Notes: generated by a model from the letters alone, not told the origin. Counted from the stretch's first letter, positions 19,974-52,828 are shown. The stretch: 64,000 nt of DNA from Candidatus Latescibacterota bacterium (GCA_965198115.1 OZ240241.1:5824001-5888000); one strand, 5' to 3'. Made by a program: numbers and translations.

Positions 19974-20775
19974 TCAACGGTGGGTAGGACCGCCCTGGGC
20001 TGGCTGGAGCATCTCACCATCCACCACATCCGGGCGCTCGTGGACGCCAGGACGGAGCAAAATCCGCTTCTGCTGTTCGGTCAGGTCTGTGTACTCCTCT
20101 TCGTTATAGCCCCCTGGTTGAGCCACAAGATGACCGGGGCCGAATTTGTAAAGCAGAACCTTTCGCTCGTGGTCGGCCATCCAGGGCAGGGTGCCGTGGG
20201 TCAATGCTTCCGTGAAGAAGATGGCGTCGCCCGCTTTGACTTCTGGCTGGACGACGTAATGCGGCACGCGCTCGAACTTTCGAACATCTTCCGGCAGACC
20301 CGTGCGGAAATTGGTTTTGTGGCTTCCACGCACGCACGCAAACCCGCCGTCGCGTCAGACAACACGTAGGTCATCACCGATAACCCGCACTGCATCACCC
20401 CGTCCTGGTAGCGGTAGTAGTGATGGAACAGGTTGGGGAGCCCACCGTGGAGTGCGCCTCGCTTTGCCCCTGTGGTCATGAAAATGCCGTAGTCGTGGTC
20501 GAGGCGGAATCGAGGCCCCAGAAACTCGATGAGGTAGGGGAGGACCTTCGGATGATCGATCAAGTTCTGGCACGCCACATCCCAATGGGATATGCGAGGG
20601 CTCGGCGAACACCGGGATGGTTTCCCTGAATGCTGTCAGCCTCTGAATCACCATAATCTCTCGTAAATTCGCGATCGACGACCTCGAGCAGCGTATCGAT
20701 CTCGTCCTGGCTCAGGACGTCACGGATGACGAGGTAACCGTCCAGGTCGAACATGAATTTTTCTTCGGGTGTCAT
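19974..20775 (-). pseudogene. Phytanoyl-CoA dioxygenase-family gene broken by several frameshifts
   Basis: Pieces in different frames: MTPEEKFMFDLDGYLV..., LIDHPKVLPYL...LHGG..., GSHKTNF...EALTHGTLPW...RKVLLYKF. Confidence 0.8.
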
Positions 20776-20906
20776 CGGTTGCTCCTGCGCGTCCCTGTGC
20801 ATAGGTCCCTGTGCATAGCACAGAGACGAGCTCAACGCACTGTCTTAGTGGGGAAATGTAGCGCCACCCTCGCCCTCGTGCTCTGCACGAGGGCGCAGTT
20901 CCTCTA

Positions 20907-21701
20907 TCATTCAGGAGGCGCGATCGTATAGCCCTCATATGGACTGGTGTGGCCCGAATATTCGCGCTCCCCGCGAATGAGAGTCTTTTCGGGATCGTCC
21001 TTGATCACGTTCTTGACGTCGTGCGGACGATAGGCGAGCGTCAGCGCACGTCTCGAGCTGTCGGTTTCGTTGACGTCCGATCCGTGATAGCAACGGTCGA
21101 TGAACAGGAGCACGCCGCCTCTTGGCATTGGCACGGGGAGTGACCGTCGGTAGAGCTCGATTTTGCGAAACTCGCCCTTGGGTCTTCGTTCCTCTGGATC
21201 TTCCCTGCCCTGATAGCGGAAGGGTCGCTGATGGCTGCCCGGTACGATTCGGATGCACCCGTTTTCCAGGTCGGATGCTTCCAGAAAGATCGAGGCTGTG
21301 ACCAGCAGGTAGCTATAGGGTGACTCGCCGCTGTGCCACGGAACGGGGTAGGAGTTCCCGGGACGAATCATCATATGGTTGTGCTTGTTGGTTACGAGTT
21401 CGATGTTGGGTCCGAGGATGCTATCCAACGCATCCAGGATGATGGGATGCCGTGCCGTTTCGAGGTAGACAGGGTCTCGATCGAGGATCTTCGAAATCCT
21501 TCTGATATTGCCGGGGGTAATCGGTTCGTCCGTGTTTTCCCGAACGATTGGAGGAACCCCCATCTCGATCTGCTTATCCGTTGCCTCGTTCAGCCGGTCG
21601 ATGAGATCGTCCGGCAGGAGTTCGGGTATCCTGTAGAATCCGTTGTGTGTGAAGTACCAGAGATCTTCGTCCGTCAGCGACGTTGTCCTCTCTGCTGGCA
21701 T
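20907..21701 (-). CDS. Phytanoyl-CoA dioxygenase-family Fe/2OG enzyme (HxG motif)
   Basis: FTHNGF, WHSG, NGCIRIVPGSH, CYHGS, RRAL. Confidence 0.85.
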   Translation of the reverse strand: MPAERTTSLTDEDLWYFTHNGFYRIPELLPDDLIDRLNEATDKQIEMGVPPIVRENTDEPITPGNIRRISKILDRDPVYLETARHPIILDALDSILGPNIELVTNKHNHMMIRPGNSYPVPWHSGESPYSYLLVTASIFLEASDLENGCIRIVPGSHQRPFRYQGREDPEERRPKGEFRKIELYRRSLPVPMPRGGVLLFIDRCYHGSDVNETDSSRRALTLAYRPHDVKNVIKDDPEKTLIRGEREYSGHTSPYEGYTIAPPE

Positions 21702-21767
21702 TGATTTTTGTCCTTTCGCGACCTTTCCTTGGCGTCCACCTGCGTTTCAAAACCAACCGGAGAAAAC

Positions 21768-22964
21768 ATGAACCGAAGTGGCCCCTTAGCAGGCGTCAAG
21801 GTTCTCGATTTCACACACGTGCTCTCGGGGTCGTACGGCACGATGCTGCTCGGAGACCTGGGTGCGGATATCATCAAGGTCGAGCGCAAGGGGGTTGGTG
21901 ATGCCCTGCGAAGCACACCTCCGCTGAAAGACGGCCAGAGCGCCTACTTCTTCTGTACCAATCGCAACAAACGATGCCTGTCTCTCGACCTGAAGAAAAA
22001 GGGAGCCCTCGAACTGGTCAATCGCCTTGTGAAGGGCTGCGACGTGTTCGCAGAGAATTTCAGACCCGGCGTGATGGATCGGTTGGGATTGGGATACGAA
22101 GACATTCAGAAGGTCCGACCCGACATCATCTACGCCAGTCTGTCGGCTTTCGGTGAAAAGGGCCCTTATCGGGACAGACCGGGGTTCGAACTGATCATCC
22201 AGTCTCTGGTGGGGCTCGTGGGTGTGACATCCGAACCCGGCGGACGACCTGCGAAGGTTCAACCGCAGGTTGCAGATATCTGTGGGGGAATGTATCTGGC
22301 GGTCGCCATCCTGGGCGCCCTTTATCACCGCAGTCAAACCGGGAAGGGCCAGCGAGTCACGACTTCGCTGACAGAGGGTCTGTTCGCGTTGATGACGAAC
22401 TTCGTTTACCTGCATTTGATGGGCTCCCAGATTCCGGATCATCTCGGCACCCGCAACCCGATGTTGTTTCCATCTCAATCCTTCCGAACTCGCGATGGCT
22501 ACGTTTCGACGGTGGTCGTGCCGGCACATTGGGAGCGGTTCTGTCGTGCGTTGAGTAAGGTCGAGTGGATCGACCATGCAGACTACGGCGACGTGGTCTT
22601 TCGAGTTCAGCACTACGACGAAATGGAAGCGATGGTCGAGGAGGTGACGACAACCAGAGACACGTCTGACTGGGTGACCCAGTTCGAGCGGCACCAGGTG
22701 GCAGCTACCCCGATCAACGAGGTGGAGGATTTCTTCAATGACCCGCAGTTCAGCGCGTTGGAGTTGCTCACCACGGTGAATCACTCGAAAGCGGGTGACG
22801 TGCAGATCCAGACACCACCCTGGCAAATGTCTGAGACACCGTGCGAGGTAGACTTGCCTCCGCCGTCGTTGGGTGAGCATAGCGTTCAGATTCTGCTCAA
22901 GAACGGATTTTCAGAAGATGAAATCGAGTTTCTGTTGAAAGAAAACGTGATCGAGGGGGACTGA
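21768..22964 (+). CDS. Family III CoA transferase (CaiB/BaiF)
   Basis: PLAGVKVLDF, LGDLGADIIKVE, NRNKR, ENFRPGVMDRLGLGY, PPSLGEH. Confidence 0.93.
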   Translation: MNRSGPLAGVKVLDFTHVLSGSYGTMLLGDLGADIIKVERKGVGDALRSTPPLKDGQSAYFFCTNRNKRCLSLDLKKKGALELVNRLVKGCDVFAENFRPGVMDRLGLGYEDIQKVRPDIIYASLSAFGEKGPYRDRPGFELIIQSLVGLVGVTSEPGGRPAKVQPQVADICGGMYLAVAILGALYHRSQTGKGQRVTTSLTEGLFALMTNFVYLHLMGSQIPDHLGTRNPMLFPSQSFRTRDGYVSTVVVPAHWERFCRALSKVEWIDHADYGDVVFRVQHYDEMEAMVEEVTTTRDTSDWVTQFERHQVAATPINEVEDFFNDPQFSALELLTTVNHSKAGDVQIQTPPWQMSETPCEVDLPPPSLGEHSVQILLKNGFSEDEIEFLLKENVIEGD

Positions 22965-22968
22965 GCCT

Positions 22969-24904
22969 TTACCAGGCGCGATTGACTTCGTGACCGTGTC
23001 CGTGGAACCAGATCGTGTCGACGACGACGTGGAAGGCAACCCCCATCGCGAAACCCACGAGCAACCTAAAAGCAGAGGCGTTGTTTTCCTGTAAAGCTGG
23101 AGGCCTCCGACACGCATCAAGATGACTTTGAGCAGCCAGACCAAAAAGACAGAGATGACGATTCGTCTCGACACGAGGGATGCTGGGAAAGTGAATCCGA
23201 TCGGGTGGATGGGGAATCTTGGAAAGAGATAGCGGACGTAGAGCAGCCCGCTCACGAAAACTGCGCCGATCCCGAGAAACGTGATCCTCGCCCAATCCGT
23301 ACCAAGCAGTTGACCCTGAATCCGGTTAGCTGTGAACGTCCAGATGCCGACCGGACCATCGTTGTGTCCGTTGAAGCTCCGCACACCGAAGTTGTAGCTG
23401 CCGGTGACGTGATAGCCGTAGTAGAGGATGAATCCGAACACGGTGATTGCGCCGGCGAGGGCTGCGAGCATCACGGCGGGAGCGAGCGTTTTTCGGGTTC
23501 GGACGTTGATGGCCTGTCCGAGACGTGGGATGTGAGCGAGCATCGTCATACCGAACGTCTTGGCGTCGCAGTGAAAGGCGAACGTGAGGCCGAGCGCAGC
23601 GGCGCTGGCTGGGCCGAGACCGGCGATGCCGTGGACGTACCAGGTGAAAGCCTGGGCGGTGATGGGCCCTCTCAGGAAGACGAGACCGCTTTCGACGACG
23701 ATGCGGGCGAGCCCTAGATAGACGACGAGCGTACCGAACCAGAAGGTCAGCATCAGAATCCAGTCGAAGCCTGCCTGCCTCAACCAGAGCAACGTGTAGG
23801 CGCAACTTCCCAAAAGCATCCAGGTGGCCGTGCGATAGCTGAAGAGCTCCTCCGAATCGTCCAGATCGCCACGTCCGGTGATGCCTTGACGATCACCTTT
23901 TGCAGGTGGTCCCGGGCCGACCAGACCCCCCAACCGACGAACACGATCATTCCGCCGAAGTTCTGCCATCCGATGGAGGCTGCGGATGAGCACCACATAT
24001 CTGCGCCACCGATGGAAAATCCGAGTCGATTGAAGATCCCCGCTTGAACCATCGTGACTAGGTTGAAGAACCAGAGGCTGAAGAGGACGTCCGACTTGGT
24101 GAAATAGCCGAAGATGATGGTCAGGATGCTCTCTGTAAGAATGAATCCTGGGAAGCCTCGGGTGATGACGATCGTTCTCTCGAAACCCTCTTCCCTCAAG
24201 AGGGGCAGATCGGGGATGGTCGGAACGAACCAGGAAGCCACGTGCCAACAGACGATGCCGAAAACGAGCGAGAATCCTGTCCAGAAGAGCGAAGACCGCA
24301 TCGCGATGAGGAGAGTGCCTCGGGTTCCCGATGTGCCGGTCAGTTCGAGGAGGGTTCGAGCGATGGGGAAGGGCAGGCGCTCGTATTCCATCCACTGTTT
24401 GCGGAAGATCAGGCTGATCGAAAGATTGACGAGCAGTATGGCACCCAGGAACGTTCCCCACCAGAACATGGGCGTGACCCACGACGCCCACGGAATCGAC
24501 TGACCCGGGCCGAGACCTTCGTAGAACCCGGCCGTGGCGTGGGCGTCCACGATCGTCCACTCCGGCAGGCGGCTGACGATCAGCTCCGCCCAGCGATTTT
24601 CCGCCGAGGCGAAGTAGGTGGGTGCGGTGATGACGCCGAGGAAATAGCCGGAGAGCCATTCGCCCTGCATACAGGCTGCGATCATCCCCATACAGCAGAT
24701 CGTCAGAAGCTCGGACGGCGACAGGCCGCGGTCTTGTGAAAAGAGGAGGTTCAGCCCGAGGAGGATGAAAAACGGGATCAGAAGGCCGATCGAGAGTTGA
24801 GAGAAGTCAGCCCGTGACGAGTCCACGACCAGGCTGGAGTAGGCTGGCCAGAGGTTGACCCAGGACGCCATCAGCAGTCCCAGCAGGAAGGACCGACGCG
24901 TCAT
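22969..24904 (-). pseudogene. DUF6785/DUF6784-like membrane protein, copy 4, two frameshifts
   Basis: Three overlapping ORFs carry consecutive parts; frame changes near 23884 and 23065, each repaired by adding one G to a G run. Confidence 0.8.
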
Positions 24905-24958
24905 TGACCTACGTTTCGAGGGGCTCGTTCGGCGAGAAGCGGCAAAGGACCCTCGCCG

Positions 24959-25333
24959 TCACTGTAAGCTCGGAAGCGGCCAGAGCTCCTCACACTGCTT
25001 CTGTGTAAACGACGGGGACGCGGCACTCAAGTACCGTAGTGTGCACCCACTCGTGTTTCGGAGGCCGTGTTCGGATTCGGATGGAATGAAGACGCAGTCT
25101 CCCTGCTCGACCTCTTGCTCATCGCCATCCGCTGACATTACTCCACTGCCTTCGAGGATGTAGTACATCTGTTCGGGCTTGTGAGAATGGGGATGCTGGA
25201 ACCCTTCAGCCTCCATCTCCACGAGCGTGACGGTCAGATGGTCGGAACGAGATGTCCTGGCCGACACGAGCAGGAAGGATTCGATGCCGTCTCGTCGATA
25301 CCGTGGTGCTGTACCGGTTCGAAGAACAATCAT
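24959..25333 (-). CDS. Cupin domain protein
   Basis: HSHKPEQMYYILEGSG ... GDCVFIPSESEHGLRN. Confidence 0.88.
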   Translation of the reverse strand: MIVLRTGTAPRYRRDGIESFLLVSARTSRSDHLTVTLVEMEAEGFQHPHSHKPEQMYYILEGSGVMSADGDEQEVEQGDCVFIPSESEHGLRNTSGCTLRYLSAASPSFTQKQCEELWPLPSLQ

Positions 25334-25384
25334 TTGGGCTTGGCCCTTCGTGTGCGGAGGCCCAGGCTCCCCGGACGACCGACG

Positions 25385-26938
25385 TTAACGATAGTTGATG
25401 ACGAGCTCGATGGACTCGAGGCGCGGGGATCTCGTGTTCGGTTCGACGCATTTGGGCAGGGCAACCGTTATCTCGTTCGGGCCCTGCACCGCCGGAACGT
25501 CGCGGTGCACGACGGTCGTACAGCCAGGGAATTCTACCCAATGACTGTCGATCAGAGGATCCCCGTTGAGGGTCGTCGCGACTTCCTTCATCAGCCGATC
25601 GAATCCCGTAAACGCGAAGCGCAACCAGATACAGCTCAGAGCGTTGTCGTGCCTGGCCGACTCGATATCGTCTCCGACCCAGACCGTGAAGGATGCGCTA
25701 TCACCCGGATTCGTCAGATCCAGGGGCAGGGGCATCGCGCCCCCTTCTTCGCACGTCCGTCTGAGGATATCGCTCGTGACCCAGTAGCGTTTGTTCTCGC
25801 GCGCAAGAAGCGACGGGTTCCCAATTCGTTCGAGCACGCCGATCTCCGCGGGTTCGTAGGGCAGGTTTCCTCCTGCTGTGCGGTGACAATCGTAGTTGAA
25901 GAGATAGATGAAGCTTGCGCCCTGGTGCCAATAGCTCAGGGCGCCGGCGTAGAGCATATCGGGACCTGGAACGAGCGGGGTCCGCGATCCGTAGCCTCTG
26001 AACCGATGCTCGAGTCCACCTCCGATTCGGCATTCCGTTCCCCTGGCCAGATCGGCAAATCGTCTCACCTCGGCTCCCATATCCAGGTGTTGCGAATCCA
26101 TCGGAACGATCAAGTCGACCAGGTTTTCCTCGATCCAGGTCGGGGCATCGAGTCCAAGTGACAGACACCACTCCACCGTGGGCGGTACACGGGCCATCAG
26201 CGTAAGAGGACGGCCCTTCCTTTCGGAGATTGCACGCGTTCCCGACCGAACGGCACGGACGAAGTCCGTCATCAAGGGCAGACCCGCTTGCTGCTCTCCG
26301 TCTTTGAAATACCAGGGTCCTCGCTGAAAGTTCATCTCAAACCCATCGACATCGTGCTTCTCGCAGGTTTCCAGGATGAGACCTAGCTTACGTTCGCGCA
26401 CTTCCGGTCGGGCGAAATCGAAACACCAGGTGTAACCCTCCTTTGGAGGTCCGTAGGGATGGTCCCGAGGGTACGATGCGCCGATGAGCAGCTCCGGATG
26501 CTCCTTCTTGTACGTGCTGCGCAACGTGCCGAATCGAGGTGTGTCGTCCTCGTGATTGTCGTTCATCCTCAACGCCGGCCAAAATCCGAGACCCCGGTCG
26601 TGAGCCCGCTCGGCCAACAGATCGAGGATGTCGATTTCGGCATCGAGGAAGGTTCGTGTGTTGTCGGCCATCCGACGAATCCATTGAAGCGATTCGTCCT
26701 CCGGCCATTCATCCACGTTCTCGCCATAGACTTCAGCGAACTCGGATCGGTGGGAGAGCGTCTCGTCGCCCCGGCCGATGGAGTTGGTGAAGACATCCAC
26801 ACCCGTGTCCACGATTTCTTCGATGTCCCGACAGGCCTGCTCGGGTGTGATCGGTGCAGGGAAAGCGGACAGCGTGGTGCTGTCGCCATCGGAGTTATAA
26901 ATGAGGCGAGGGAAACTTTCCGTTATGCGGTCAGCCAC
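25385..26938 (-). CDS. Glycoside hydrolase-like protein (GHL10-like)
   Basis: LIYNSDG, LRMNDNH, FDFARPEVR, DVDGFEMNFQR, IYLFNY. Confidence 0.6.
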   Translation of the reverse strand: MADRITESFPRLIYNSDGDSTTLSAFPAPITPEQACRDIEEIVDTGVDVFTNSIGRGDETLSHRSEFAEVYGENVDEWPEDESLQWIRRMADNTRTFLDAEIDILDLLAERAHDRGLGFWPALRMNDNHEDDTPRFGTLRSTYKKEHPELLIGASYPRDHPYGPPKEGYTWCFDFARPEVRERKLGLILETCEKHDVDGFEMNFQRGPWYFKDGEQQAGLPLMTDFVRAVRSGTRAISERKGRPLTLMARVPPTVEWCLSLGLDAPTWIEENLVDLIVPMDSQHLDMGAEVRRFADLARGTECRIGGGLEHRFRGYGSRTPLVPGPDMLYAGALSYWHQGASFIYLFNYDCHRTAGGNLPYEPAEIGVLERIGNPSLLARENKRYWVTSDILRRTCEEGGAMPLPLDLTNPGDSASFTVWVGDDIESARHDNALSCIWLRFAFTGFDRLMKEVATTLNGDPLIDSHWVEFPGCTTVVHRDVPAVQGPNEITVALPKCVEPNTRSPRLESIELVINYR

Positions 26939-26980
26939 GGTGTTTCTCTTTGGACCTGGTCCTAGAGGCGGCGGTGAGAC

Positions 26981-27205
26981 TCAGTCGAACGACAACGGCA
27001 GGCCGATGAGCACCCACAGTGCCCACACGACTGCGAGAACCGAAGCTCGGACGATGGATGCGCGGAAGGTGGGAACCCAACGGTCGGATCGAGCGCGCCC
27101 GACCCGGACGGTGATGGACGCCAGGTCGATTTGCGTGACGATGTTCCAGCCCAGCACGGCGTAACGGTCGGGCGTCAGACCGTACTCGAACGTTCGGCTG
27201 AAACT
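26981..27205 (-). pseudogene. 3' remnant of a DUF4153-like membrane protein gene
   Basis: Manual translation SRTFEYGLTPDRYAVLGWNIV...VVWALWVLIGLPLSFD* with no start codon; YGxTPxRxAxLGxN recalled as the DUF4153 C-terminal motif. Confidence 0.5.
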
Positions 27206-27235
27206 TCTGGCAGCCTATTTCAGGGATCGAGTTGA

Positions 27236-29269: not shown

Positions 29270-29398
29270 GTCGGGGTCTCTGGATTGGTTGGATAAGGTG
29301 GTGGCGTAGTCGGGAAGAAGATAACTGTTGCGGTGGGTCCTCGCTTGGATAACACGGTGGGCAGGACCCTGCCCGAGGAGGGGCGAATCGTGCGACGC

Positions 29399-35857: not shown

Positions 35858-36847
35858 ATGGACACCCCACGTCACCCCTGCTCACAGGCTTTGCCGGAAG
35901 ATCTGGACATCGGTGAGGCTTGTGTGTTCAAAGACCCGGACTTCACCAACGGTGAGACGACTCTCAGCGACGCAGAGGTTGCGCACTTCAAAGAACAAGG
36001 TTTCGTCGTGAAACGCGGGTTGCTCGACGAGGGCGAGACGTTCCAGCGAGTTGTCGATTACGTTTGGGAGAACGTACCTCGAGGGATGTGCAAGCGCGAT
36101 GACCCCGAGACGTGGTTCGCCGCATTGGGTGAAGATTGGACAGAGGAAGACGAGAGAGCACTCGGGCCGATCAAGCACGGTGGCTGGAGGATGCGGTCTC
36201 GAGACGGCATCGGGACCGAACCGTTTCTACGCGACAAGATCGGGAACCATCCGCAGATGCTGGGAACGGTGTCCCGGTTCACGGGCACCCCCGTCAAGCG
36301 TCTAAGTCGGGTGCGAGGGGTCTACAGCAAGTTTCCACACCTTCCCGGCACGGTTGGTAAACTGGCTCCACACGCGGACCATATTGCGTCGCAGCTTTCC
36401 GCGATGGTTCTCGTGAATGAGGTTCCTCCACGATGCGGCGGCTTCACGATCTGGCCCGGCTCCCACCGTCTCCTGCACTCGCACTGGGATACGGTGTTCG
36501 GAAGTGGCATTGGCCCTGATCGTCAGGATAGTTTTCGAGAAGCTCGGGACTCAGCGCTGAGGGAAATCACTCCCCTGGAGTTTCCGGGCAGTTCAGGCGA
36601 CGTGGTCTTCTGGCATCCTCGACTGATTCACTCGACGGGGATCAATCATTCGGTCGAACTGGGTCGTCCTATCCTGCGTCTGGTCGTGCCCTGCGATTAC
36701 CAGCGCGATGGCGGAACCTGGTTCGACGATATGGAGTTCGGCCCGGGATCGGACCGGCAGTGGTGGATCGACACACGCAATTTCCGCGAAGACGTGCCGG
36801 CCACGGCTGACAACCTCTGGGACGGGTGGGCGTTTGAAACTGGTTAG
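35858..36847 (+). CDS. Phytanoyl-CoA dioxygenase-family protein (HxD)
   Basis: FKEQGF, PHAD, GGFTIWPGSH, GDVVFWHPRLIH. Confidence 0.82.
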   Translation: MDTPRHPCSQALPEDLDIGEACVFKDPDFTNGETTLSDAEVAHFKEQGFVVKRGLLDEGETFQRVVDYVWENVPRGMCKRDDPETWFAALGEDWTEEDERALGPIKHGGWRMRSRDGIGTEPFLRDKIGNHPQMLGTVSRFTGTPVKRLSRVRGVYSKFPHLPGTVGKLAPHADHIASQLSAMVLVNEVPPRCGGFTIWPGSHRLLHSHWDTVFGSGIGPDRQDSFREARDSALREITPLEFPGSSGDVVFWHPRLIHSTGINHSVELGRPILRLVVPCDYQRDGGTWFDDMEFGPGSDRQWWIDTRNFREDVPATADNLWDGWAFETG

Positions 36848-41638: not shown

Positions 41639-41676
41639 GATCTCTCCTTCATCCCTGCGGGCCCTGCGTTTCGCTT

Positions 41677-43174
41677 CTATCCCCGCAATTTCTCGAAATC
41701 GATATCAAGATTCCGCGACTTGTAGACGACGATGACCCCCCGTCGCGGCGATTCGTTCATCCACGGATAGGCACCGTGCGACTGGGCAGCGCCCATAAAG
41801 ATGAGCACGTCACCCGCGTTCATTTCCACGTGCTTGACCATCCCCATCTCTTCTTCGCACAGGCTCAGCGCATCGGGCATCGGATAGTTTGCCTTGTGGC
41901 TGCCGGGGACGCAGACATACCCACCGTCGCCGGCGTTCGTATCCACGAGCTGCCACGCGACGTTGACTTGCTCCGAGTAGACTCTTCCGTTCTGTAAGAC
42001 ATAGGTGTTTCGAGGCGAGGTCGGCTCGGGCGTACTGTGGACGTAGAGCCCGGAAGTCCCCTTCTCATAGTGAATGGCTCTGGCGCGGCTCAGGCAGTAA
42101 CCGCTTCCCATCATCCAGTTCAGGCGCTGGATGACGGCCGGGTGCGCGGCCATTCTGCGGAACGGTTCGCAGTACGGGTCTGGCAGATGGAAGAGTCCGT
42201 AGAGCGCGGGGTAGCGTGATCCAGCAAGCCTTTTGGAACCACGTGTGCCGTCATTACCGTATTCCAGTCGATCGGCGTAGACATCCATGGCCTCGTGGGC
42301 TGCCTCGATCCACGCTTCGTCCATCACATTCCTGATGAGGACGTAGCCGCACAGATCCCAGAAGTAGAATTCCTTCTCGTCGATGCCTGATTCGGGATCG
42401 GGTGCGTGAATCGATGGATGATACCGTGCCTCGGTTTTTTCAACGTGACAGGTCTGCCCGTCGGATTTGATGACAGATGAGAGCGACTCTTTCGCCGACA
42501 GAACGGCGCCTTGCTCCGGCGACATCCCTTCCCAACCGGAAGTCTCCCCTATGATGGCGTCGTTCGACCCTCTCACGAGACCGCTGATGTAACCGAATTC
42601 AAGAAGCCTCTGCTTTCCGTCTCCGTTCCACGGTCGAAGCCCGTGGAGGACGTTCTGAGCGCACAGGATCAGGTCGCCCGCCTTGAGCACCGGCTGCTCG
42701 GCCAGACCCATATCGTCCGTGCCATCGAGGAGGTCCGCGGGCGTTTCCAGGTCGCTCCGATGGGTACCGGGCACGAGGACCAACCCGCCGTCGCCCGGGT
42801 TCACGTCGGCCAGTGCCTAGATCGCGAGCACACCGTGGCAGTAACGAATATGATTTCGTTGCTGGTAGGCGCGAGACCAGTTGCGTGGTTCGTTGCCGCC
42901 GGTGAGAGAGGTAGATGACGCGGTAGTCTCGTCGAGGAGACGCGGGGGCTGGCCCTGACGAGCATCGCCCCAACAGAGCTCTTCGAGGTATCCGACGACA
43001 AGAGGATGATCGCGAAGCTGACGAAGGGGATCGGCCAGAGCGTCCGCATCAATCTCCCCGCTAGGGACTTCGTCCAGAGCCTGGTTGCACGTAGCCAGTT
43101 CTGCCTTCAGTCAGCACGTTCCGCAGAATCAGATATCCCGCCACGTCGAAGCGGTAATCCTCTTCGTGACTCAT
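41677..43174 (-). pseudogene. Two-domain phytanoyl-CoA dioxygenase-family gene with frameshifts and an in-frame TAG
   Basis: MSHEEDYRFDVAGYLILRNVL start; frameshifts near 43107 and 42970; TAG at 42817-42819 in VLAI*ALAD; second domain intact (VPGSHK, HGAYPW). Confidence 0.8.
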
Positions 43175-43253: not shown

Positions 43254-43374
43254 GTCCCCGTGCTCTGCACTGGGACGCAGAGTTTTGTTCCAATGCTGAA
43301 AGTGGTTGGTCTGTGCCTCTAGCACGAGACGAGACTCGACACCCCTTGGCCCCCGTGCGGAGCACGGAGGCGAG
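43254..43374. repeat. REP doublet (GTGCTCTGCAC family)
   Basis: TCCCCGTGCTCTGCACTGGGAC ... CCCCGTGCGGAGCACGGAGG. Confidence 0.6.
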
Positions 43375-43430
43375 CGAAGCGCAAGCTCGTTGTATTCCGG
43401 GCAGAGCCCGGAACGAATTCCCCTGCGATC

Positions 43431-44903
43431 CTACACGAACCGGAACGTGTACAGCTTCGTCGCGCGCATCATCACACGCAGGCGAATCGGCCCCTTGACA
43501 TCGATACGGTTGCCCTTGCCGTTCCACGACACGCGTTTCTGAATCGCGTTGGCCGTAACGGTCTGACACTCCTTGAAAGTATAGCCCTCCAAAGCACGTC
43601 CCTCCGCATCCAGGAGCTCGACCAGGAGCCAGCCTCCGGAACCGCAGTCGACGTTGAGTTCAAGCTCGTTGCCGTCGAACGTGAGTGGGGGCGTGGTGAA
43701 CTCTCCGCCAGCCATACTCGTATCCGCGGAGACGAACCCGTCACGGCGGAGGACGGCTCGGAAGAGACCCGAGTTCGAACCGTCGCGCTCATCCTCATTG
43801 TGTTTATCTCCACGCCCACCGTAGTAGATCCACGTCTCCGTTTCGGTGTGGATGGGCCAGACGCCGGCCATCACCATTCCGCCGTCCGGGGCGCCATCGA
43901 AACCTCGACGGATGAAGGGTTCACGGTTTCCCTGTCGTGTCCAGGTGATGCCGTCCCGACTCGTGAGGAGCTTCACGTCCATCGTGGCCGGCCCGTCGTC
44001 GGCTTCCCAGTGGTGATAAGCGGCTGGCAGCATAAAGTAGGCGTCGTCGCCTTCCGGATGTTTATAGGCGGCGTTCGTGTAGAAGTCCATCTGGGGTCGC
44101 TCGACGCGATTGAACGGCAACGGCGATCCGAGCTCGACGGCATCACCTTCCAGGACGATGAGGGTGGGCTGCGACCAGGTCTTGAAATCGGGTGACGTGA
44201 TTCGCCCGACTGAGCGGTAGCGCTTCCCGTGTTCCATCTCGGCGGCCTCGTCCCGTCGCTGGGTTTCGTGCACACGTGTGTAGCCGACGTAGCAGTCGTA
44301 TTTGTCGTCCCAGAAGAAGACGTTCTGCGTGTCGCACATCTGATTGGGCGGGTTGGGCTGATTGTCATCGTAGGTCCAGTGGACCCCGTCGGGTGAATGC
44401 ATCGCCCAGAGCCCGGGCTGGGTACCCGCTTCGATCTCCGCATCCGCCGGCTGGTATTTCGTCCAAAGGCGGTAACGTTCTTCGGCGGGTGCTCGGTCGT
44501 CGATGTAGACGGTCCCGCCCTGCATGCTCTGACGCTCATCCAGCGGAGCGACGATGTTGTTGGCCGTGGAACCCTGGAAGGTGTTGAGGTTGAGTTCAGG
44601 TTTGTGCCACGCCAGACCGTCCTCCGATTCCGCGTAGCACAGCCTCACCGCGCCTTCCTGCGGATAACCGGATATGTAGAGCCCTCCGTACCAGAGCCGA
44701 AACTGCTTCTCGCCCTCGCGGATGATCGTGTTGTAACCGCTGATGCCCTGACGCTCCCACGGTTTGTCCGGGCGCATCACCGGTTCCGGGGATTGCGCGG
44801 GTGGATTCATGCACAGCCCAATGCCAGTCGATCGATCGAAGTACCGATGGTCGATGAAGAAATGCTTTTGCGATCCCGCGTCGATGACGTTCTGCTCAGC
44901 CAT
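43431..44903 (-). CDS. Five-bladed beta-propeller glycosidase-like protein (GH32/43/130-like)
   Basis: YAESEDGLAWHKPEL, SPDGVHW, SRDGITW, LRRDGFVS; paralog at 58726. Confidence 0.6.
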   Translation of the reverse strand: MAEQNVIDAGSQKHFFIDHRYFDRSTGIGLCMNPPAQSPEPVMRPDKPWERQGISGYNTIIREGEKQFRLWYGGLYISGYPQEGAVRLCYAESEDGLAWHKPELNLNTFQGSTANNIVAPLDERQSMQGGTVYIDDRAPAEERYRLWTKYQPADAEIEAGTQPGLWAMHSPDGVHWTYDDNQPNPPNQMCDTQNVFFWDDKYDCYVGYTRVHETQRRDEAAEMEHGKRYRSVGRITSPDFKTWSQPTLIVLEGDAVELGSPLPFNRVERPQMDFYTNAAYKHPEGDDAYFMLPAAYHHWEADDGPATMDVKLLTSRDGITWTRQGNREPFIRRGFDGAPDGGMVMAGVWPIHTETETWIYYGGRGDKHNEDERDGSNSGLFRAVLRRDGFVSADTSMAGGEFTTPPLTFDGNELELNVDCGSGGWLLVELLDAEGRALEGYTFKECQTVTANAIQKRVSWNGKGNRIDVKGPIRLRVMMRATKLYTFRFV

Positions 44904-45012
44904 TACTCACCTCACGTTTGGGGCTCATTGAGAGCATTCGAACCACAGATCACACAGAGCACACCGAATGGACACCCCTCTGTCTATTCTGTGTGTTCTG
45001 TGGCTTCTATTC

Positions 45013-45957: not shown

Positions 45958-46106
45958 GAAGGGCTCCTATGGATTGGGGAACGGTATCGGCCCCGAGGAG
46001 TCAGGGGTCCACAACGGTTTTTTCTTCTCACGGTTCGTCCATTTCGCTATCTAGGCGGACGTAAGGGAATTTCTGTGTCCACCTCTCGCCACAGGAAGGA
46101 AACACG

Positions 46107-46532
46107 ATGACCCAAGAACAGCGAGGAAGAAAGGACCTGGTCGAGTATCCGATTCAGGACAATCTACGGCTGGATGTCTACTGGCGGGATGATAAGGCTG
46201 GATTCGGTCCCGCGGCATCGGTCTATGCCTACGATAAGGAGGTCCTGCGACTGGATTGCTTTGGGGAGGCCAAGAAGCAGGGCGGCAAGGGCCACTGCCA
46301 CATGAACCTAGAGCAAACGGGAGGAAGGCAGTGGATGTATCCACCGGGCTCCGTCACGGAGCATATCGATCACGCCATACACGACTTGAGACAGAATCTG
46401 AATTTCTGTTTGGTGACGAATCCGGACGAAAAGATCCAGGAGATCAAGGTCAGCTCGAAGACAATCGAACCGATCGCCGAGAAAGCCGAGAAGGACCTTC
46501 GTGCGTTTGCGGGCCAGCTCGAGCTCCCGTAG
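46107..46532 (+). CDS. Hypothetical protein
   Basis: 141 aa with AGGAAGGA SD; LRLDCF...GHCH motif. Confidence 0.7.
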   Translation: MTQEQRGRKDLVEYPIQDNLRLDVYWRDDKAGFGPAASVYAYDKEVLRLDCFGEAKKQGGKGHCHMNLEQTGGRQWMYPPGSVTEHIDHAIHDLRQNLNFCLVTNPDEKIQEIKVSSKTIEPIAEKAEKDLRAFAGQLELP

Positions 46533-46535
46533 TGG

Positions 46536-47390
46536 TCAGGACGGGCGTCTTTGCCCCAGGAGATCGAGTAGCTGATCACTGGCGACCTGGAGCGCGTCAT
46601 CGGGGATCGGGACGCGGTTCGCACAGCCGAACCGCCGCCACGCCCAGTTGACGGCGTACTGCGATTGTATCAGGTAGCGCGTTCGGTCGGAGGTGTTGGG
46701 TGCGCCTCGATGCCAGCACTGGGGGTCCTGAAAGTAGATGTCACCCGCTTTGCAGAAGACGGACACGGGCCCCTTGCCTTCAAACTCGGGATGATCCTGG
46801 TTGTTCGGTTCGCGTCCGGAGAAATGACTGCCAGGCACGTATTGCGTCGGGCCGTGTTCGTCGGTTTCGATGTCGCTGAGCGCCATCTGGACGGTGAACC
46901 ACAGCACCGGCGGACGAATTCGAGGATCGTGACGGGGGACGTCGTCGGGAACAGGAAAGTGGACTGCGCCGTCGCAGTGCCATTTCTCGATCGCGACGCC
47001 AGCGGAGTTGCGCAGTACGTTCTGCCCGCAGAACTTGCAATCCGGCCCGACGATCGCCTCGGCCAGGCTGAGGATGGGTTCGCGCAGCAGCATGTCACGA
47101 AAAATCGAGTCGAGTTCGATCGTGTTTCGAAGGATGAAAGGCAATATCTCCCCTGTTTCTGAATGCGCCTTCGTCTGGACGTAACGGATGTCGCTCAGAT
47201 CAGGGTTCTCTCTGGCTGCGAGGACGGGATCGTCGAGTAGGGCGTCCGTTCTCTCTTTCAAGGCGGATATCTCGTCGGGCTCGAGTACGCCGGGGACGTG
47301 GACGAACCCGTCACGGTGCAGGGCGTCGACGATCTCTTGAGTTTCGGCTTCGCTGTATGGTTGACCTTCGAGAATAGGGCTGGATGCCAT
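46536..47390 (-). CDS. Phytanoyl-CoA dioxygenase-family protein (HxD)
   Basis: LHRDGF, WHCD, GPTQYVPGSH, CWHRG, R. Confidence 0.88.
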   Translation of the reverse strand: MASSPILEGQPYSEAETQEIVDALHRDGFVHVPGVLEPDEISALKERTDALLDDPVLAARENPDLSDIRYVQTKAHSETGEILPFILRNTIELDSIFRDMLLREPILSLAEAIVGPDCKFCGQNVLRNSAGVAIEKWHCDGAVHFPVPDDVPRHDPRIRPPVLWFTVQMALSDIETDEHGPTQYVPGSHFSGREPNNQDHPEFEGKGPVSVFCKAGDIYFQDPQCWHRGAPNTSDRTRYLIQSQYAVNWAWRRFGCANRVPIPDDALQVASDQLLDLLGQRRPS

Positions 47391-47497
47391 GATCCCTCCT
47401 GGCAGTTGCGGGTTCGGAAGTGTTAGCAATCGAATCGGAGACGGAGTAAGTTGGGGCATTCTCAGCCCCGACACCACATCGAATCGAAAAGTCAGTC

Positions 47498-48676
47498 TTG
47501 AAAATCGAATCCATCGACTTCCAGATCCTCGAGGGCGAGCCGGTAGAGCCAGAGTGGCGACCCTACCGTACGATGATCGAATATCCCGATTCGCACCGGT
47601 TCGGCCACAAGCCGTTCGAGGGCGAAGGGATCAAGCTGGGGGCGAGACCAACCTATACGTGCGTGCTACGCATCCGGACCGACGAGAATCTCGAGACGTG
47701 TGAGATCTTTGGCTCGCGCTTCAGCCGTGAACAGATCGAGTGGGAAGCGCAGACGTTCAAGCTGCAGTGGGGGCCGGAGTTGGTCGGCGCCAACGCGTTG
47801 GACCGGGAGTACATGTGTCACAAGATGTGGATGGCCCGTCGCTATTTCCACATGCCCTCGCAGCTTCCCCTTACCTTAATCGATCAGCTCCTGTGGGACC
47901 TGGCCGGTCTCAAGGCACAGCTGCCAGTGCACAAGCTGCTCGGAGGGTTCAGGGATCGCGTGCCTGCCTACCTCACGGAAGCCAGCCGAAACCACGAACA
48001 GACGCTCGAGACGGCGCAGAAGGCGAAGGAGCTGGGCTACAAAGGGTTCAAAGATCATTCGATGCTGGGGGTCGAAGCGAACCTGGCACTCGCCAAAGAG
48101 CTGAGAGATCTGGTGGGTGACGAGATGGTGCTGCTGCACGATCCCGTGCAGCAGTACTCGGTGGAAGATGCGATCAAGGTGGGGCGTCGCCTGTGGGATC
48201 TCGACTACCTCTGGATCGAGGAACCGCTCCAGGAAGAGGACATTATCGGATTGAAGCGACTTTCCGACGCAATTGAACTTCCCGTTTTGGCGTTGGAATC
48301 GAACCTCGGACATCCATACGTGGCCGTTCCCTATCTGCAAAATGATGCGATCGATATGGTGCGGAACGTCGCGATGGGCATTACGGGTCAGATGAAGCTG
48401 GCCAATTTGGCGGAAATGTTCGGGAAGCCTGCCCACGGCGGGAACGTGCACGTGGTTGCAGCCGTTCGAAACGATGATTGGTACGAACACCACGCGAGGA
48501 ATGCGTTCAAACGCGGTGACAACAGCCCGGGAAGGCCCCTGTCGTTGGCCGTAGGAGGTCTGATTCGAGATACGTTCGAAGTCCGCGACGGCTATATGTA
48601 CGTTCCGCAGACCCCAGGTCTCGGCCGAGAGATCGATTGGGAACAGATTGAAGCGAGAACGATTAATACAATTTAG
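47498..48676 (+). CDS. Mandelate racemase/muconate lactonizing enzyme family, tandem copy A
   Basis: WDLAG, LLGGFR, FKDH, HDP, WIEEP, PGLG; TTG start. Confidence 0.88.
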   Translation: MKIESIDFQILEGEPVEPEWRPYRTMIEYPDSHRFGHKPFEGEGIKLGARPTYTCVLRIRTDENLETCEIFGSRFSREQIEWEAQTFKLQWGPELVGANALDREYMCHKMWMARRYFHMPSQLPLTLIDQLLWDLAGLKAQLPVHKLLGGFRDRVPAYLTEASRNHEQTLETAQKAKELGYKGFKDHSMLGVEANLALAKELRDLVGDEMVLLHDPVQQYSVEDAIKVGRRLWDLDYLWIEEPLQEEDIIGLKRLSDAIELPVLALESNLGHPYVAVPYLQNDAIDMVRNVAMGITGQMKLANLAEMFGKPAHGGNVHVVAAVRNDDWYEHHARNAFKRGDNSPGRPLSLAVGGLIRDTFEVRDGYMYVPQTPGLGREIDWEQIEARTINTI

Positions 48677-48727
48677 AATTAGGGAATCAGTGAATTAGGG
48701 AATCAGTGAATTAGGAAATTGAGGGAA
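48677..48727 (+). repeat. Short tandem repeat (AATTAGGGAATCAGTG x2 plus degenerate units)
   Basis: Similar GGGAATTA/GGAATCA octamer runs follow stop codons at ~19684, 50120, 51461 and 54928. Confidence 0.7.
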
Positions 48728-48907
48728 TGTCATCCCGGTACGCTTCTTAGAGAGCCTGTCAGAGCCTGCTTCGAGCGAAGCGAGAAGAACGTATGTGAGG
48801 GGGGCCCATTTTGACTTTCGCAATGATGGGAGAATGGATCCCCTTCTACAAGCTCCCTTCGGCAGGCTCAGGACAGCCAGGCGGCTCCCAACAACGCCGG
48901 GATGACA
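48728..48907. repeat. REP doublet carrying two internal insertions
   Basis: Aligns with the shorter 50161-50252 copy apart from inserts at ~48749-48798 and ~48842-48882. Confidence 0.7.
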
Positions 48908-48941
48908 ACGCTCTTTCAATGGCGCTACTCATAGGTCACCC

Positions 48942-50120
48942 ATGAAAATCGAATCCATCGACTTCCAGATCCTAGAGGGCGAGCCGGTAGAGCCCGAGTG
49001 GCGGCCCTACCGAACGATGATCGAATATCCCGATTCGCACCGGTTTGGACACAAACCGTTCGAGGGCGAAGGGATCAAGCTGGAGGCGAGACCAACATAT
49101 ACTTGCGTGCTGCGCATCCGAACAGACGAGAATATCGAGACGTGTGGAATCTTCGGCTCACGCTTCAGCCGTGAACAGATAGAGTGGGAAGCGCAGACAT
49201 TCAAGCTGCAGTGGGAGCCGGAGTTGGTCGGCGCCAATGCGTTGGACCGTGAGTACATGTGGCACAAGATGTGGATGGCCCGCCGCTACTTTCACATGCC
49301 GGTGATCCTCCCTCTCTCCACAATTGATCAGCTGCTCTGGGACCTGGCCGGTCTCAAGGCTCAGCTGCCAGTGCACAAACTGCTTGGTGGGTTCCGAGAT
49401 CGTGTGCCGGCCTACCTGACAGAGGCCAGCCGCAATCACGAGCAGACACTCGAGACGGCGCAGAAAGCGAAAGAGCTGGGTTACAAAGGGTTCAAAGATC
49501 ACTCGATGCTGGGGGTCGAAGCGAATTTAGCGCTTGCCAAGGATCTGAGAGATCTGGTGGGTGACGAGATGGTGCTGATGCACGATCCTGTGCAGCAGTA
49601 TTCGGTGGAAGATGCCATCAAGGTGGGTCGTCGTCTGTGGGATCTGGATTACCTCTGGATCGAGGAGCCACTGCAGGAGGTCGACATCATCGGGCTCAAG
49701 CGGCTCTCCGACGCGATTGAACTTCCCGTCTTGGCGCTGGAATCGAACCTCGGGCATCCTTACGTGGCCGTGCCCTATCTGCAGGACGACGCAATCGACA
49801 TGGTGCGGAACGTGGCGATGGGCATCACGGGTCAGTTCAAGCTGGCCAATCTGGCGGAAATGTTCGGGAAACCGGCTCACGGCGGGAACGTGCACGTGGT
49901 TGCCGCCGTCCGGAACGACGATTGGTACGAACATCACGCGAGGAACGCCTTCAAGCGCGGCGACAACGAACCGCGCCGCCCGCTTTCGTTGGCCGAGGGA
50001 GGCTTGATCCGGGAGACGTTCGAAGTACGCGACGGGTATATGTACGTTCCGCAGACACCGGGTCTCGGCCGAGAGATCGATTGGGAACAGATCGAAGCGA
50101 GAACGATCAACACAATCTGA
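48942..50120 (+). CDS. Mandelate racemase-family protein, tandem copy B
   Basis: 392 aa, nearly identical to copy A. Confidence 0.9.
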   Translation: MKIESIDFQILEGEPVEPEWRPYRTMIEYPDSHRFGHKPFEGEGIKLEARPTYTCVLRIRTDENIETCGIFGSRFSREQIEWEAQTFKLQWEPELVGANALDREYMWHKMWMARRYFHMPVILPLSTIDQLLWDLAGLKAQLPVHKLLGGFRDRVPAYLTEASRNHEQTLETAQKAKELGYKGFKDHSMLGVEANLALAKDLRDLVGDEMVLMHDPVQQYSVEDAIKVGRRLWDLDYLWIEEPLQEVDIIGLKRLSDAIELPVLALESNLGHPYVAVPYLQDDAIDMVRNVAMGITGQFKLANLAEMFGKPAHGGNVHVVAAVRNDDWYEHHARNAFKRGDNEPRRPLSLAEGGLIRETFEVRDGYMYVPQTPGLGREIDWEQIEARTINTI

Positions 50121-50160
50121 AATCAGGGAATCAGGAAATGAGGGAATTGAAGGCGAGAGA

Positions 50161-50252
50161 TGTCACCCCGGCATGTTTCTTGGCCGGGGCCCATTTTGAC
50201 TTTCGCAAAGATCGGAGAATAGATCCCGGCTCAAAACAATGCCGGGATGACA
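50161..50252. repeat. REP doublet (TGTCAYCCCGG family)
   Basis: TGTCACCCCGGC...GCCGGGGCCCA...AGATCCCGGC...GCCGGGATGACA. Confidence 0.75.
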
Positions 50253-50289
50253 CCGCTCTTTCATAGGCGCTGTAAATCGTAGGTAACCC

Positions 50290-51462
50290 ATGAAAATTGA
50301 ATCCATCGAGTTCCAGATCCTCGAAGGCGATCCGGTCGAACCCGAATGGCGTCCACTGCGAACGATGCGGGAGTATCCTGGGTCCCATAAAGTCCGGTTC
50401 GGTCATCGGCTCTACAGCGAAGAGGGTATCCGACTGGACCCACGACTGGCCTACACGTGTCTCATGCGGATCAGGACAGACGCGAATATCGAGACGATCG
50501 GCTCCTTCGACACCGGATGGGGAAAAGAGGATCTCGAGTGGGGTGCGCGGACGTTCAAAGTTCAGTGGGAGCCGGAGCTGGTCGGCTCCGATGCGCTTAA
50601 CCGTGAGTATATGTGGCACAAGATGTGGATGGCGCGTCGGTACTTTCACATGCATGCATCAACCGCGCCGCTGGTCTTGATCGATACGCTGCTCTGGGAC
50701 CTGGCGGGGCTGCACGCGAAGCTACCCGTCCACAAACTGCTCGGGGGGTTCAGGGATCGGGTGCCCGCGTACCTGACAGAGACGGGCATTCCCTACGAGG
50801 ACACGTTGAAGTCAGCCCAACGTGCGGTCGACGAAGGCTACCACGGCTTCAAGGATCACTCGATGCTGGGTGTCGAGACGAATCTCGCGCTGGCGAAGGA
50901 TATCCGCGACCTGGTCGGGGGTGACCTGGTGTTGATGCACGATCCCGTGCAGCAGTACTCGGTCGACGATGCGATCAAGGTGTCCCGCAGGCTCGAAGAA
51001 CTGGACTACATCTGGATCGAAGAGCCGCTGCAGGAGTTCGACATCAACGGGTTGAAACGATTGTCGGATGCGGTGGATCTGCCAGTGATGGCGCTCGAAT
51101 CGATTCAGGGGAACCCGTATCTCGCGACGCCCTACCTGGCGGCGAGTGCGATCGATATTGTGCGGCAAACCGGATTGGGCATCACGGGGCAGATGAAGCT
51201 GGCCAACCTGGCCGAGATGTTCGGAATGAATGCCCACGGCGGGCACCCACACGTCGTGGCTGCGATCCGCAATGACGACTGGTGGGAAGTGAGCGCGTGG
51301 CCGGCAACAGGGTCGGACCGTTCAATGGGAGGGTCGTTCCCGGGGTTGATCGGAGGAATGATGGAGATCCGGGACGGGTATATGTATGTTTCACAGGATC
51401 CTGGGCTGGGACGGTCGATCGATTGGGATCAGATCGAAGCCAGGACCATTATGAAAATATGA
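50290..51462 (+). CDS. Mandelate racemase-family protein, tandem copy C
   Basis: 390 aa, same motifs, more diverged than A and B. Confidence 0.9.
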   Translation: MKIESIEFQILEGDPVEPEWRPLRTMREYPGSHKVRFGHRLYSEEGIRLDPRLAYTCLMRIRTDANIETIGSFDTGWGKEDLEWGARTFKVQWEPELVGSDALNREYMWHKMWMARRYFHMHASTAPLVLIDTLLWDLAGLHAKLPVHKLLGGFRDRVPAYLTETGIPYEDTLKSAQRAVDEGYHGFKDHSMLGVETNLALAKDIRDLVGGDLVLMHDPVQQYSVDDAIKVSRRLEELDYIWIEEPLQEFDINGLKRLSDAVDLPVMALESIQGNPYLATPYLAASAIDIVRQTGLGITGQMKLANLAEMFGMNAHGGHPHVVAAIRNDDWWEVSAWPATGSDRSMGGSFPGLIGGMMEIRDGYMYVSQDPGLGRSIDWDQIEARTIMKI

Positions 51463-51625
51463 AATTAGGGGCTTAGGAAATCGGCGGATCGATCGTCGTT
51501 GAATGCGTTCTTGTCTGTACGGTTAGATCACGATTGGGTGGTCAGCCGGCTTCACCCGGCTTCGCTACCCTAGCGTGGGGCTTCAGCCCCACCCACCAAG
51601 GGGCCCACGGCCACCGAGGCGAACA

Positions 51626-52828
51626 ATGGTGACAAGAGAAAACATCATTCGTAACCCACTGCTCGAAGACATCGACGATCCGATCCTCGCTCGTGCGCTT
51701 ATCGGGTCGACCGAAGAGCTAGCGACCGCGACGCGTCCCGCCTTTCTCGAGAATCCGCACTCACCTGTCACGTGGGGGCCGGAGGATTGGGAGACGCTGG
51801 AAGCCTCACGTGAAGACCTTTTCGACTGGTCATCTGTCGAGGCGCAGTTCGACTTCGACACGTTCCTGCGAGACGGATACGCGGTCCTCCGCGGCGTGAT
51901 GACGCCGGCTACGGTGAATGCGTGGACCGAAGCCGTTCAGTTCGGGCAACGGATCAACGATGCGCTGTTGAGAGCCGACTGGAATGAGATCGATTGGCTC
52001 GCCCTCGGTCGGAATCCTCCAGCGAAGTTTCTTTCGCAAGAGGACATAGAGCGTGCCACCGCGGGCAGCCAGAAGGCACCACAGTCGACTGACGAAGCGG
52101 GTGTCTTGACGCTTCGGATCAATAGTGTGTTCTCAGAGTACTTCCCATCCGGGCACGTCCCGTATCTGATGAACGTGCTGACGCACCCTCAGATGCTGGC
52201 GCTGGAACGTGCGTGCCTCGAGACAGAGGAGATCTATTTCGATCATAACCAGCTTCTGACGCGCCCACCAGGGTATCTCGGCGGAACCTGGCACAGCCAC
52301 CGCATCGGCGCCGGCTACGACGATGGTGTCGTCAGCCTGGAGGCCTATAGATCTCAGCCGAACGCGATTCTGACACTGTGCTATCCTCAAGGGTTCGAGA
52401 GTGAGAACGACGGTGGGCTGAAGATCGTGCGAGGTAGCCATCTATTCCGCGAACCGGACACGTGTCGCGCGCCGAGTGATGAAGAGTTGGCGGCGGGATG
52501 GATGAAAGAGCATCTACACCCCGTAACATCCGAACCATTGGAAATCGAGCACCTTTCGCTGGAACCTGGATCGGTTGTCTGCTGTCTGTCTCACGCGGCG
52601 CACGCAGTATCCCCAAAGGGGACGGATAAATCGACGCGCTGGTGCTCTTTGTACTGCTACAAGAAAGCGGATGTGAGTACTGGGCTCGTCCAACCTCCGA
52701 GCGCGATTCCTCCCGTGTGGGCGATGAAGGCCCAGCGAGGAGAGTTGCCCGGGGTACTCACCAAGTTGCTTCGCCACAGCTTCGATCGCGAGTTGACGGG
52801 CGGTCGAAAACTATTCGACGATGCCTGA
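51626..52828 (+). CDS. Phytanoyl-CoA dioxygenase-like protein (HxH motif)
   Basis: FLRDGYAVLRG, WHSH, GGLKIVRGSH, HAAHAV, RWCSL. Confidence 0.75.
   Translation: MVTRENIIRNPLLEDIDDPILARALIGSTEELATATRPAFLENPHSPVTWGPEDWETLEASREDLFDWSSVEAQFDFDTFLRDGYAVLRGVMTPATVNAWTEAVQFGQRINDALLRADWNEIDWLALGRNPPAKFLSQEDIERATAGSQKAPQSTDEAGVLTLRINSVFSEYFPSGHVPYLMNVLTHPQMLALERACLETEEIYFDHNQLLTRPPGYLGGTWHSHRIGAGYDDGVVSLEAYRSQPNAILTLCYPQGFESENDGGLKIVRGSHLFREPDTCRAPSDEELAAGWMKEHLHPVTSEPLEIEHLSLEPGSVVCCLSHAAHAVSPKGTDKSTRWCSLYCYKKADVSTGLVQPPSAIPPVWAMKAQRGELPGVLTKLLRHSFDRELTGGRKLFDDA

Follow-up and report, generated by a model that had tools for sequence, protein, structure and literature searches.

Rewired iron sites, rather than chloride pockets, as the probable explanation of non-canonical PhyH motifs in a Candidatus Latescibacterota genome

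Six genes of the PhyH fold, members of the enzymes that depend on iron and 2-oxoglutarate (Fe/2OG), lie between positions 19,974 and 52,828 of a 64,000-nucleotide stretch of DNA from a Candidatus Latescibacterota bacterium (this whole stretch is called here the window), and are named in the following after their first metal-ligand motif (HAD, HCD, HSG, HGG, HST and HSH). Comparison of the sequences makes it moderately probable, in our judgement, that the odd motifs are rewired iron sites of oxygen-inserting Fe/2OG enzymes in unrelated paralogues and not chloride pockets. In detail, the six genes would be unrelated products of a genome-wide PhyH expansion (about 300 proteins), with HAD and HCD as ordinary 2-His-1-Asp enzymes. 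HGG, now a pseudogene, would belong to the clade of HygX and take its carboxylate from a Glu four residues before the distal His (position -4); HSG would have arisen separately from sisters with an H-R-D motif, gaining at -4 an Asp202 that may bind the iron or, more likely, hold an Fe-bound water as Asp721 does in AspH, thus leading to hydroxyl rebound. HSH would use a His223/His225/His326 triad, with 2OG held on Arg338 and His323 in the second shell, and HST would be a two-domain remnant with a C-terminal site that has two His and an invariant Asn and lacks an acid. The intact members are expected to turn Fe, 2OG and O2 into a ferryl species oxidising organic substrates in a catabolic lifestyle.

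The six motifs, of four metal-ligand types, that had originally been reported were all confirmed on re-reading, as follows.

19974..20775, minus strand: HGG gene, HygX-clade PhyH pseudogene in three reading frames, 44-59% identical to the intact paralogue L001; H-G-G at 20441-20449, E-A-L-T-H at 20196-20210, 2OG Arg at 20163-20165; the frame is shifted twice, around 20596-20629 and around 20336-20366.
20907..21701, minus strand: HSG gene, intact 264-aa PhyH protein of the N-K-H-N-H family; H-S-G at 21327-21335 (H123-S-G125), D202-x3-H206 and R217.
35858..36847, plus strand: HAD gene, canonical PhyH; H-A-D at 36371-36379, distal His and Arg, no acid at -4.
41677 to about 43189, minus strand: HST gene, broken two-domain PhyH; frameshift near 43105 and TAG at 42817-42819; in the C-terminal domain H-S-T at 42031-42039, acid-free G-A-A-Q-S-H at 41776-41793, Asn at 41962-41964 and Arg at 41743-41745.
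46536..47477, minus strand: HCD gene, canonical PhyH; H-C-D at 46971-46979, distal His and Arg, no acid at -4.
51626..52828, plus strand: HSH gene, intact 400-aa PhyH-fold protein of the HxH family, with ATG at 51626; H223-S-H225 (52292-52300), H323-A-A-H326 (52592-52603) and R338.

Five open reading frames (ORFs) passed the curated cut-off of the Pfam PhyH family (PF05721, 22 bits) with scores of 78.3, 34.3, 63, 82.4 and 28.9 bits, the C-terminal piece of the HGG gene remaining under it at 19 bits. The distal His and the 2OG-binding Arg are present in all six genes, and the canonical H-x-D/E only in HAD and HCD, being absent from HSG, HGG, HST and HSH. Gly or Ala replaces the acid in HSG and HGG only; the residue is Thr in HST and His in HSH.

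To place these motifs, the metal site was surveyed across the genome (8.43 Mb), which holds 336-342 PhyH domains in 327-333 reading frames, or about 293 genes after merging of overlaps. Once 69 of 336 domains were dropped, either missing one His column or having no His there, the 267 domains with both His were distributed as 196 HxD, 6 HxE, 35 HxG, 11 HxA, 7 HxS, 6 HxH and 6 other. At position -4 from the distal His, an acid was found in 40 of the 65 non-canonical domains, 31 of the 35 HxG domains among them, versus 5 of the 202 canonical ones, and 11 further domains carried an Asp at -5 behind a one-residue insertion. In a FastTree phylogeny of the domains, a single clade of 57 (support 0.94) took in most of the non-canonical members with an acid at -4; the HSG pair had canonical sisters around it (0.998), and a separate clade was made up of four HxH domains (0.97). 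A HygX-clade paralogue at G000:C1:5805977-5806861 (minus strand) has both acids (H-A-D and E-x3-H) and is possibly an intermediate or a reversal of the ligand swap; another paralogue, at G000:C1:1530114-1531025 (minus strand), shows H-G-G with Glu at -4 and is nested among canonical domains, possibly as a further independent origin of the relocated acid.

The HGG gene is assigned to the HygX type because of both a profile match and the relocated-acid motif. A profile of 21 HGG-type paralogues gave HygX as top PDB match (E 4e-23), with the LHGG and NEALMH motifs of HygX aligning residue for residue with those of the profile, and the gene's own C-terminal piece ranked HygX first, although weakly (E 0.18). 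The third ligand site of HGG is not carboxylate-free, since its E-A-L-T-H aligns with the N-E-A-L-M-H of HygX. The latter enzyme (PDB 4XC9, 4XCA, 4XCB and 4ZPI), which forms the orthoester of hygromycin B, has the PhyH fold, H-x-G and a Glu at -4 as in HGG, and is described in a review as an oxidative cyclase with an H-X-G...E-X3-H triad in which the acid is relocated (PMC13374393). Among the genome paralogues, both the HGG gene and the HST domain are within the HygX clade, the HST domain without the acid, and HSG is outside it. Unlike HygX, the copy in the window is a pseudogene without an aminoglycoside cluster, and the column occupied by Lys in HygX (presumably Lys137, the residue that fills the space left by Gly) has Val, Thr135 and Asn in HGG, HSG and HST, respectively. 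As far as sequence can tell, the HGG gene is a HygX-type pseudogene and not a halogenase.

In the HSG family H-x-G was found in 110 of 118 homologues. The combination of H-x-G, Asp at -4 and distal His was present in 102 of the 118 rows, the H-x-D sisters had Ser or Gly at -4 in 7 cases out of 7, and the remaining 9 rows were truncated or garbled. The same spacing, H-x-G...D-x3-H, is identical in HSG (H123/G125/D202/H206) and in the human aspartyl/asparaginyl beta-hydroxylase AspH (His679, Gly681, Asp721, His725), where Asp721 is reported to hydrogen-bond both the Fe-bound water and the Gly681 amide in an enzyme that hydroxylates (PMC10915816). AspH belongs to another Fe/2OG family, carries a TPR domain and acts on a protein substrate, unlike HSG; its family, PF05118, was not matched by HSG, for which PF05721 was the sole Pfam match at E <= 0.01. 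The likeness would thus be convergent, because HSG hits only PhyH and nests among canonical PhyH sisters. The HSG model (predicted local distance difference test, pLDDT, 91.8) had human PhyH, 2A1X, as best structural match (E 7e-15). Two halogenases, SyrB2 and CytC3, share the PhyH fold with HSG, and in these, as in WelO5, BesD, AspX and BtnX, Gly or Ala replaces the acid as it does in HSG and HGG; SyrB2 and CytC3, the two halogenases for which -4 was compared, both have Ser there, in contrast to the acid of HSG and HGG. An AspH/HygX-type site is the likely assignment for HSG. Of 20 related genomes, 17 carry an orthologue, and comparison of 10 of the loci revealed no neighbour in common; a canonical H-R-D sister of HSG lies at G000:C1:2927460-2928188. 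In two relatives (L113:1486-2967 and L118:772-2325) an HSG-type gene is directly followed by a canonical H-R-D sister, possibly a duplication pair acting on related substrates.

The HST gene belongs to a two-domain family in which, in the rows examined, the first His is lost from the N-terminal domain, a feature shared by the gene in the window; intact 505-aa relatives are 75-77% identical to it. Scoring of 110 relatives (120 rows less 10 that had no anchor) divided the family in two groups: 62 members of 569-593 aa with the inserted Asp (-5), and 48, mostly of 485-517 aa, with an acid at neither -4 nor -5, as in HST itself. One member of the former, P0352 (EYO57_13550), is listed as ASPx2 in published AlphaFold2 (AF2) models, with the inserted Asp within metal reach (PMC13489965). 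A residue of strand III, in the column that is Lys in HygX, follows the same division, being Asn in 48/48 acid-less relatives and Thr in 61/62 acid-bearing ones (Arg in the other). A Glu at the start of strand III was considered as a second relocated ligand and discarded as not compensatory, an acid being present there in 39/48 acid-less and 54/62 acid-bearing members. The third motif residue of the acid-less group is Gly in 33, Ala in 6, Thr in 4, Lys in 2, Phe in 2 and Pro in 1. The acid-less two-domain subfamily, with intact members such as P0240 and G000:C1:2414837-2416378, would be the best candidate for an open site, and the bulky residues at its presumed halide position speak against all members being halogenases; the copy in the window is likely inactive. 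Open-site candidates were also observed among single-domain paralogues, at G000:C1:5226372-5227334 and 1405671-1406630, with H-G-A and an Asn replacing the relocated Asp (M-N-G-A-Q-T-H).

For HSH the original prediction had offered 3-His catalysis as an option, and this appears to be the likely reading: HSH is predicted to be a 3-His Fe/2OG oxygenase. In 120 close relatives His223 was conserved in 118, His225 in 118, His323 in 110, His326 in 112 and Arg338 in 111. In 144 further, distant representatives HxH was kept in 80 of the 82 with the first His, a His at -3 in 61 of the 67 with the distal His, and the 2OG Arg in 38 of the 43 with both His. His225 is taken as a ligand because it is fixed, unlike the third motif position of the HygX clade, which is free (G, A, S, N, H, Q, P, T). 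His323 is instead put in the second shell, since four His and a bidentate 2OG would leave no site for O2 and since this residue is less conserved. The HSH model (pLDDT 96.0) had SptF and EctD as best Foldseek matches (E about 1e-9), with a TM-score, from Foldseek alone, of about 0.4 to the best PhyH-type structures because of large inserts. No solved sequence relative emerged, the family profile giving 0 PDB matches at E <= 5; the ESM Atlas returned PhyH-named clusters only; and no thiol-dioxygenase cupin or JmjC domain was seen, Pfam giving PhyH only and the listed fold matches being PhyH-type.

Relatives of HSH occur in Latescibacterota, Poribacteria, Gemmatimonadota and Opitutales genomes, the closest named one being a Latescibacteria record (79%), and family members are also found in Picozoa records, which are single-cell assemblies where contamination is possible. 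Distant members labelled Picozoa are in the clusters of P0360, P0382 and P0392, the last an 842-aa protein on a 25-kb contig. The H-x-H...H triad is shared, in sequence, with the 3-His cupin dioxygenases CDO and ADO and with JMJD8. In JMJD8, an H-X-H-Xn-H JmjC protein for which one paper reports a demethylase activity dependent on two His (PMC9820096), a His replaces the triad acid of a 2OG oxygenase as in HSH; it differs from HSH in being an animal protein of the JmjC and not the PhyH subfamily. Among PhyH or 2OG enzymes, JMJD8 was the sole relevant HxH precedent found, in a literature where subscription papers were thinly covered, and the 30 Poribacteria and 7 Latescibacterota rows in a 2,970-row motif sample of a published atlas (PMC13489965) included no PhyH protein whose single additional ligand was His. 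Neighbourhoods of the family (73 loci, many from related genomes) contained only generic catabolic genes, namely other PhyH genes, lactonase, aldo-keto reductase and sulfatase. A 490-aa protein without Pfam match (window 43431-44903, minus strand) has homologues in 23 of the 73 loci and about 29 homologous frames in the genome. Directly upstream of HSH stand three tandem mandelate-racemase/enolase-like genes (window 47498-51462, plus strand), the first two encoding near-identical proteins, which suggests a recent duplication.

Some observations weigh against rewired oxygenase sites as the explanation of the odd motifs. Queried singly, one paralogue placed EvdO1 above HygX. The HSG fold is no closer to HygX (Z 20.1, root-mean-square deviation (rmsd) 4.5, 208 residues) than to GriE (Z 22.8, rmsd 3.0, 219 residues), and the HSG family conserves a second acid, Glu126 (110/118). 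The ligand swap did not reach significance in an independent-pairs test (median p 0.5; only 5 supported pairs, about 8 changes on the tree); with so few changes, the swap argument rests on precedent and on the swap within the HSG family. Finally, an HSG orthologue with the same Asp, HCV22724.1 (P0514, 56% identity), figures among the 946 predicted radical halogenases of the atlas of Kipouros and Chang 2026 (Fig. 1c source data, PMC13489965), where it stayed in after a known 2-His/water hydroxylase class had, according to the authors, been removed. This atlas, which also lists other Latescibacterota and Poribacteria PhyH proteins, predicts halogenases from apo AF2 models by a method validated on AspX and BtnX. 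The listing implies that the AF2 model of HCV22724.1 had no Asp or Glu in direct metal range, which, at the level of a model, would fit a chloride site or an AspH-type water site alike.

It could accordingly be held that genuine radical halogenases of the free-standing kind make up the HSG family and the acid-less two-domain subfamily of HST, with the Asp at -4 of HSG binding substrate or shaping the pocket. The near-invariant HxG of the HSG family, the listing of an orthologue in an atlas whose method was validated and the tandem of HSG with an H-R-D sister in two relatives are in favour, as are the 48 acid-free two-domain relatives with their Gly or Ala in 39 cases and their constant Asn. 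Against this, the Asp of HSG is present exactly when HxD is lost, matches the AspH spacing and would, we infer, place a negative charge by the halide site; SyrB2 and CytC3 have no such Asp; the atlas calls the family halogenase, while our sequence data point to a compensating Asp, and AspH-domain rows are still present in its list. Likewise, the presumed halide position of the acid-less group can be Thr, Lys, Phe or Pro, the HST gene of the window is broken, and no biosynthetic context was seen in the Pfam scan of the window. We regard free-standing halogenases here as unlikely. As to the original prediction, its non-canonical chemistry holds in that the sites are non-canonical and HSG relatives are in print as predicted halogenases; halogenation is for the most part unsupported, HST and HSH not having Gly or Ala, and the equation of HxG with a halogenase is not borne out by the sequence, which has another Asp or Glu, probably at the site, in both HxG genes (Glu in HGG, Asp202 in HSG). 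Dehalogenation likewise drew no support from the motifs and neighbours, no search having been aimed beyond those.

Other explanations accept the HSH or the broken genes on different terms. HSH might bind its metal through four His (223, 225, 323 and 326), as a 2OG-independent dioxygenase or a non-iron enzyme akin to the thiol or ring-cleaving cupin dioxygenases. The frequency of His323 in both close and distant relatives, its co-occurrence with HxH and the rarity of such a residue elsewhere (His is outside the eight commonest residues at -3 in the canonical domains of the genome) speak for it, together with the large inserts and low TM-score. However, the 2OG Arg is kept at both distances, replacement affects His323 in 6 of the 67 distant rows compared with 1 of 81 for His225, and the modelled fold appears PhyH-type and not a small cupin, so that we consider four-His binding improbable and keep the 3-His Fe/2OG oxygenase for HSH. 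Least credible of all, and in our view very unlikely, is that the expansion has produced the non-canonical members as degenerating or catalytically dead copies (pseudo-enzymes or ligand-binding proteins) with no special chemistry. Two of the four non-canonical window genes are indeed broken, the N-terminal domain of the two-domain family lacks the first His, and the third motif position of the HygX clade is free; but neither HSG nor HSH is broken, each keeping both His and the Arg across more than 100 relatives, HSG recurs in most related genomes, the HxH motif is kept from bacteria to the Picozoa records, and HygX itself is described as an active enzyme (PMC13374393). The breaks themselves are probably real, because the X1 and X2 contigs reproduce the HGG and HST stretches with 0 differences and 0 gaps; X1 and X2 are from one sample, possibly the source of the assembly, hence not independent, and X3 covers short pieces only. 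Long-read assembly errors, considered as the origin of the frameshifts, found no support in these identical contigs.

Taking oxygenases with rewired sites as the preferred reading, the HxG part of the observations is largely an ordinary, already recognised HygX/AspH pattern, and the HxH family is apparently uncharacterised; the searches made found no characterised PhyH example of a 3-His or of an acid-less two-His/Asn site. A broader proposal, which we put forward only tentatively and think may well prove wrong, is that PhyH-rich marine bacteria rewired the Fe/2OG triad at least three times, yielding a natural 3-His/2OG family (Latescibacterota, Poribacteria, Opitutales, Picozoa) and an acid-less two-His/Asn two-domain subfamily, some members being free-standing halogenases outside biosynthetic clusters. 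HSG offers a clean test of halogenase mining, setting the atlas prediction against the precedent of AspH and the co-variation, and filtering for D-x3-H could help to remove false positives from halogenase atlases. The HxH family, large and well-folding, would if confirmed be a natural 3-His Fe/2OG enzyme, of interest for biocatalysis as neutral 3-His sites alter iron redox and radical rebound. These motifs also offer ligand-based entry points to the PhyH expansion of Latescibacterota and Poribacteria, which has long lacked an explanation. The expansion seen in our genome is the same as that described in Poribacteria, where more than 1.9% of genes carry PF05721 with mostly unknown function (PMC3909097); by analogy, one Poribacteria PhyH protein reported to demethylate methylated nucleosides (PMC12709175) can illustrate the kind of catabolic role open to such paralogues.

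The region had also been described as a catabolic island. Its neighbourhood is catabolic and non-biosynthetic, no carrier-protein or synthetase Pfam match being found among 43 window ORFs; it is not an island, because base composition, catabolic neighbours and PhyH density are all in the range seen across the whole genome. In particular, a genomic island was rejected on a window content of guanine plus cytosine of 58.4% against 59.1% for the genome (bin standard deviation 0.8%), homologues of DUF6785, sulfatase, enolase-like and UxuA genes occur in 36, 44, 28 and 24 of about 131 bins, respectively, and PhyH domains average 2.2 per 64 kb, with six or more in 13 of 131 bins and a maximum of 14. 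Four non-canonical members out of six give p = 0.034 for a single window (genome base rate 65/267), which is unremarkable across 131 bins.

Other features of the window include a DUF6785/DUF6784 membrane-protein gene split across two ORFs (22911-24904, minus strand), in which the X1 and X2 contigs agree without differences and which is thus likely the third pseudogene of the window; intact copies, four in number, lie at 487, 2718, 17627 and 52898, and about 65 homologous frames are present in the genome. Two proteins of 520-560 aa (15758-17452, plus strand, and 25385-26938, minus strand) have no Pfam match at E 0.01 and 9-20 homologous frames each in the genome. Three kinds of insertion-sequence transposases are found at 4729-5906, 56048-57295 and 62095-63459, of the DDE_3 type in two frames, the Mutator type and the DDE_Tnp_1 type, respectively.

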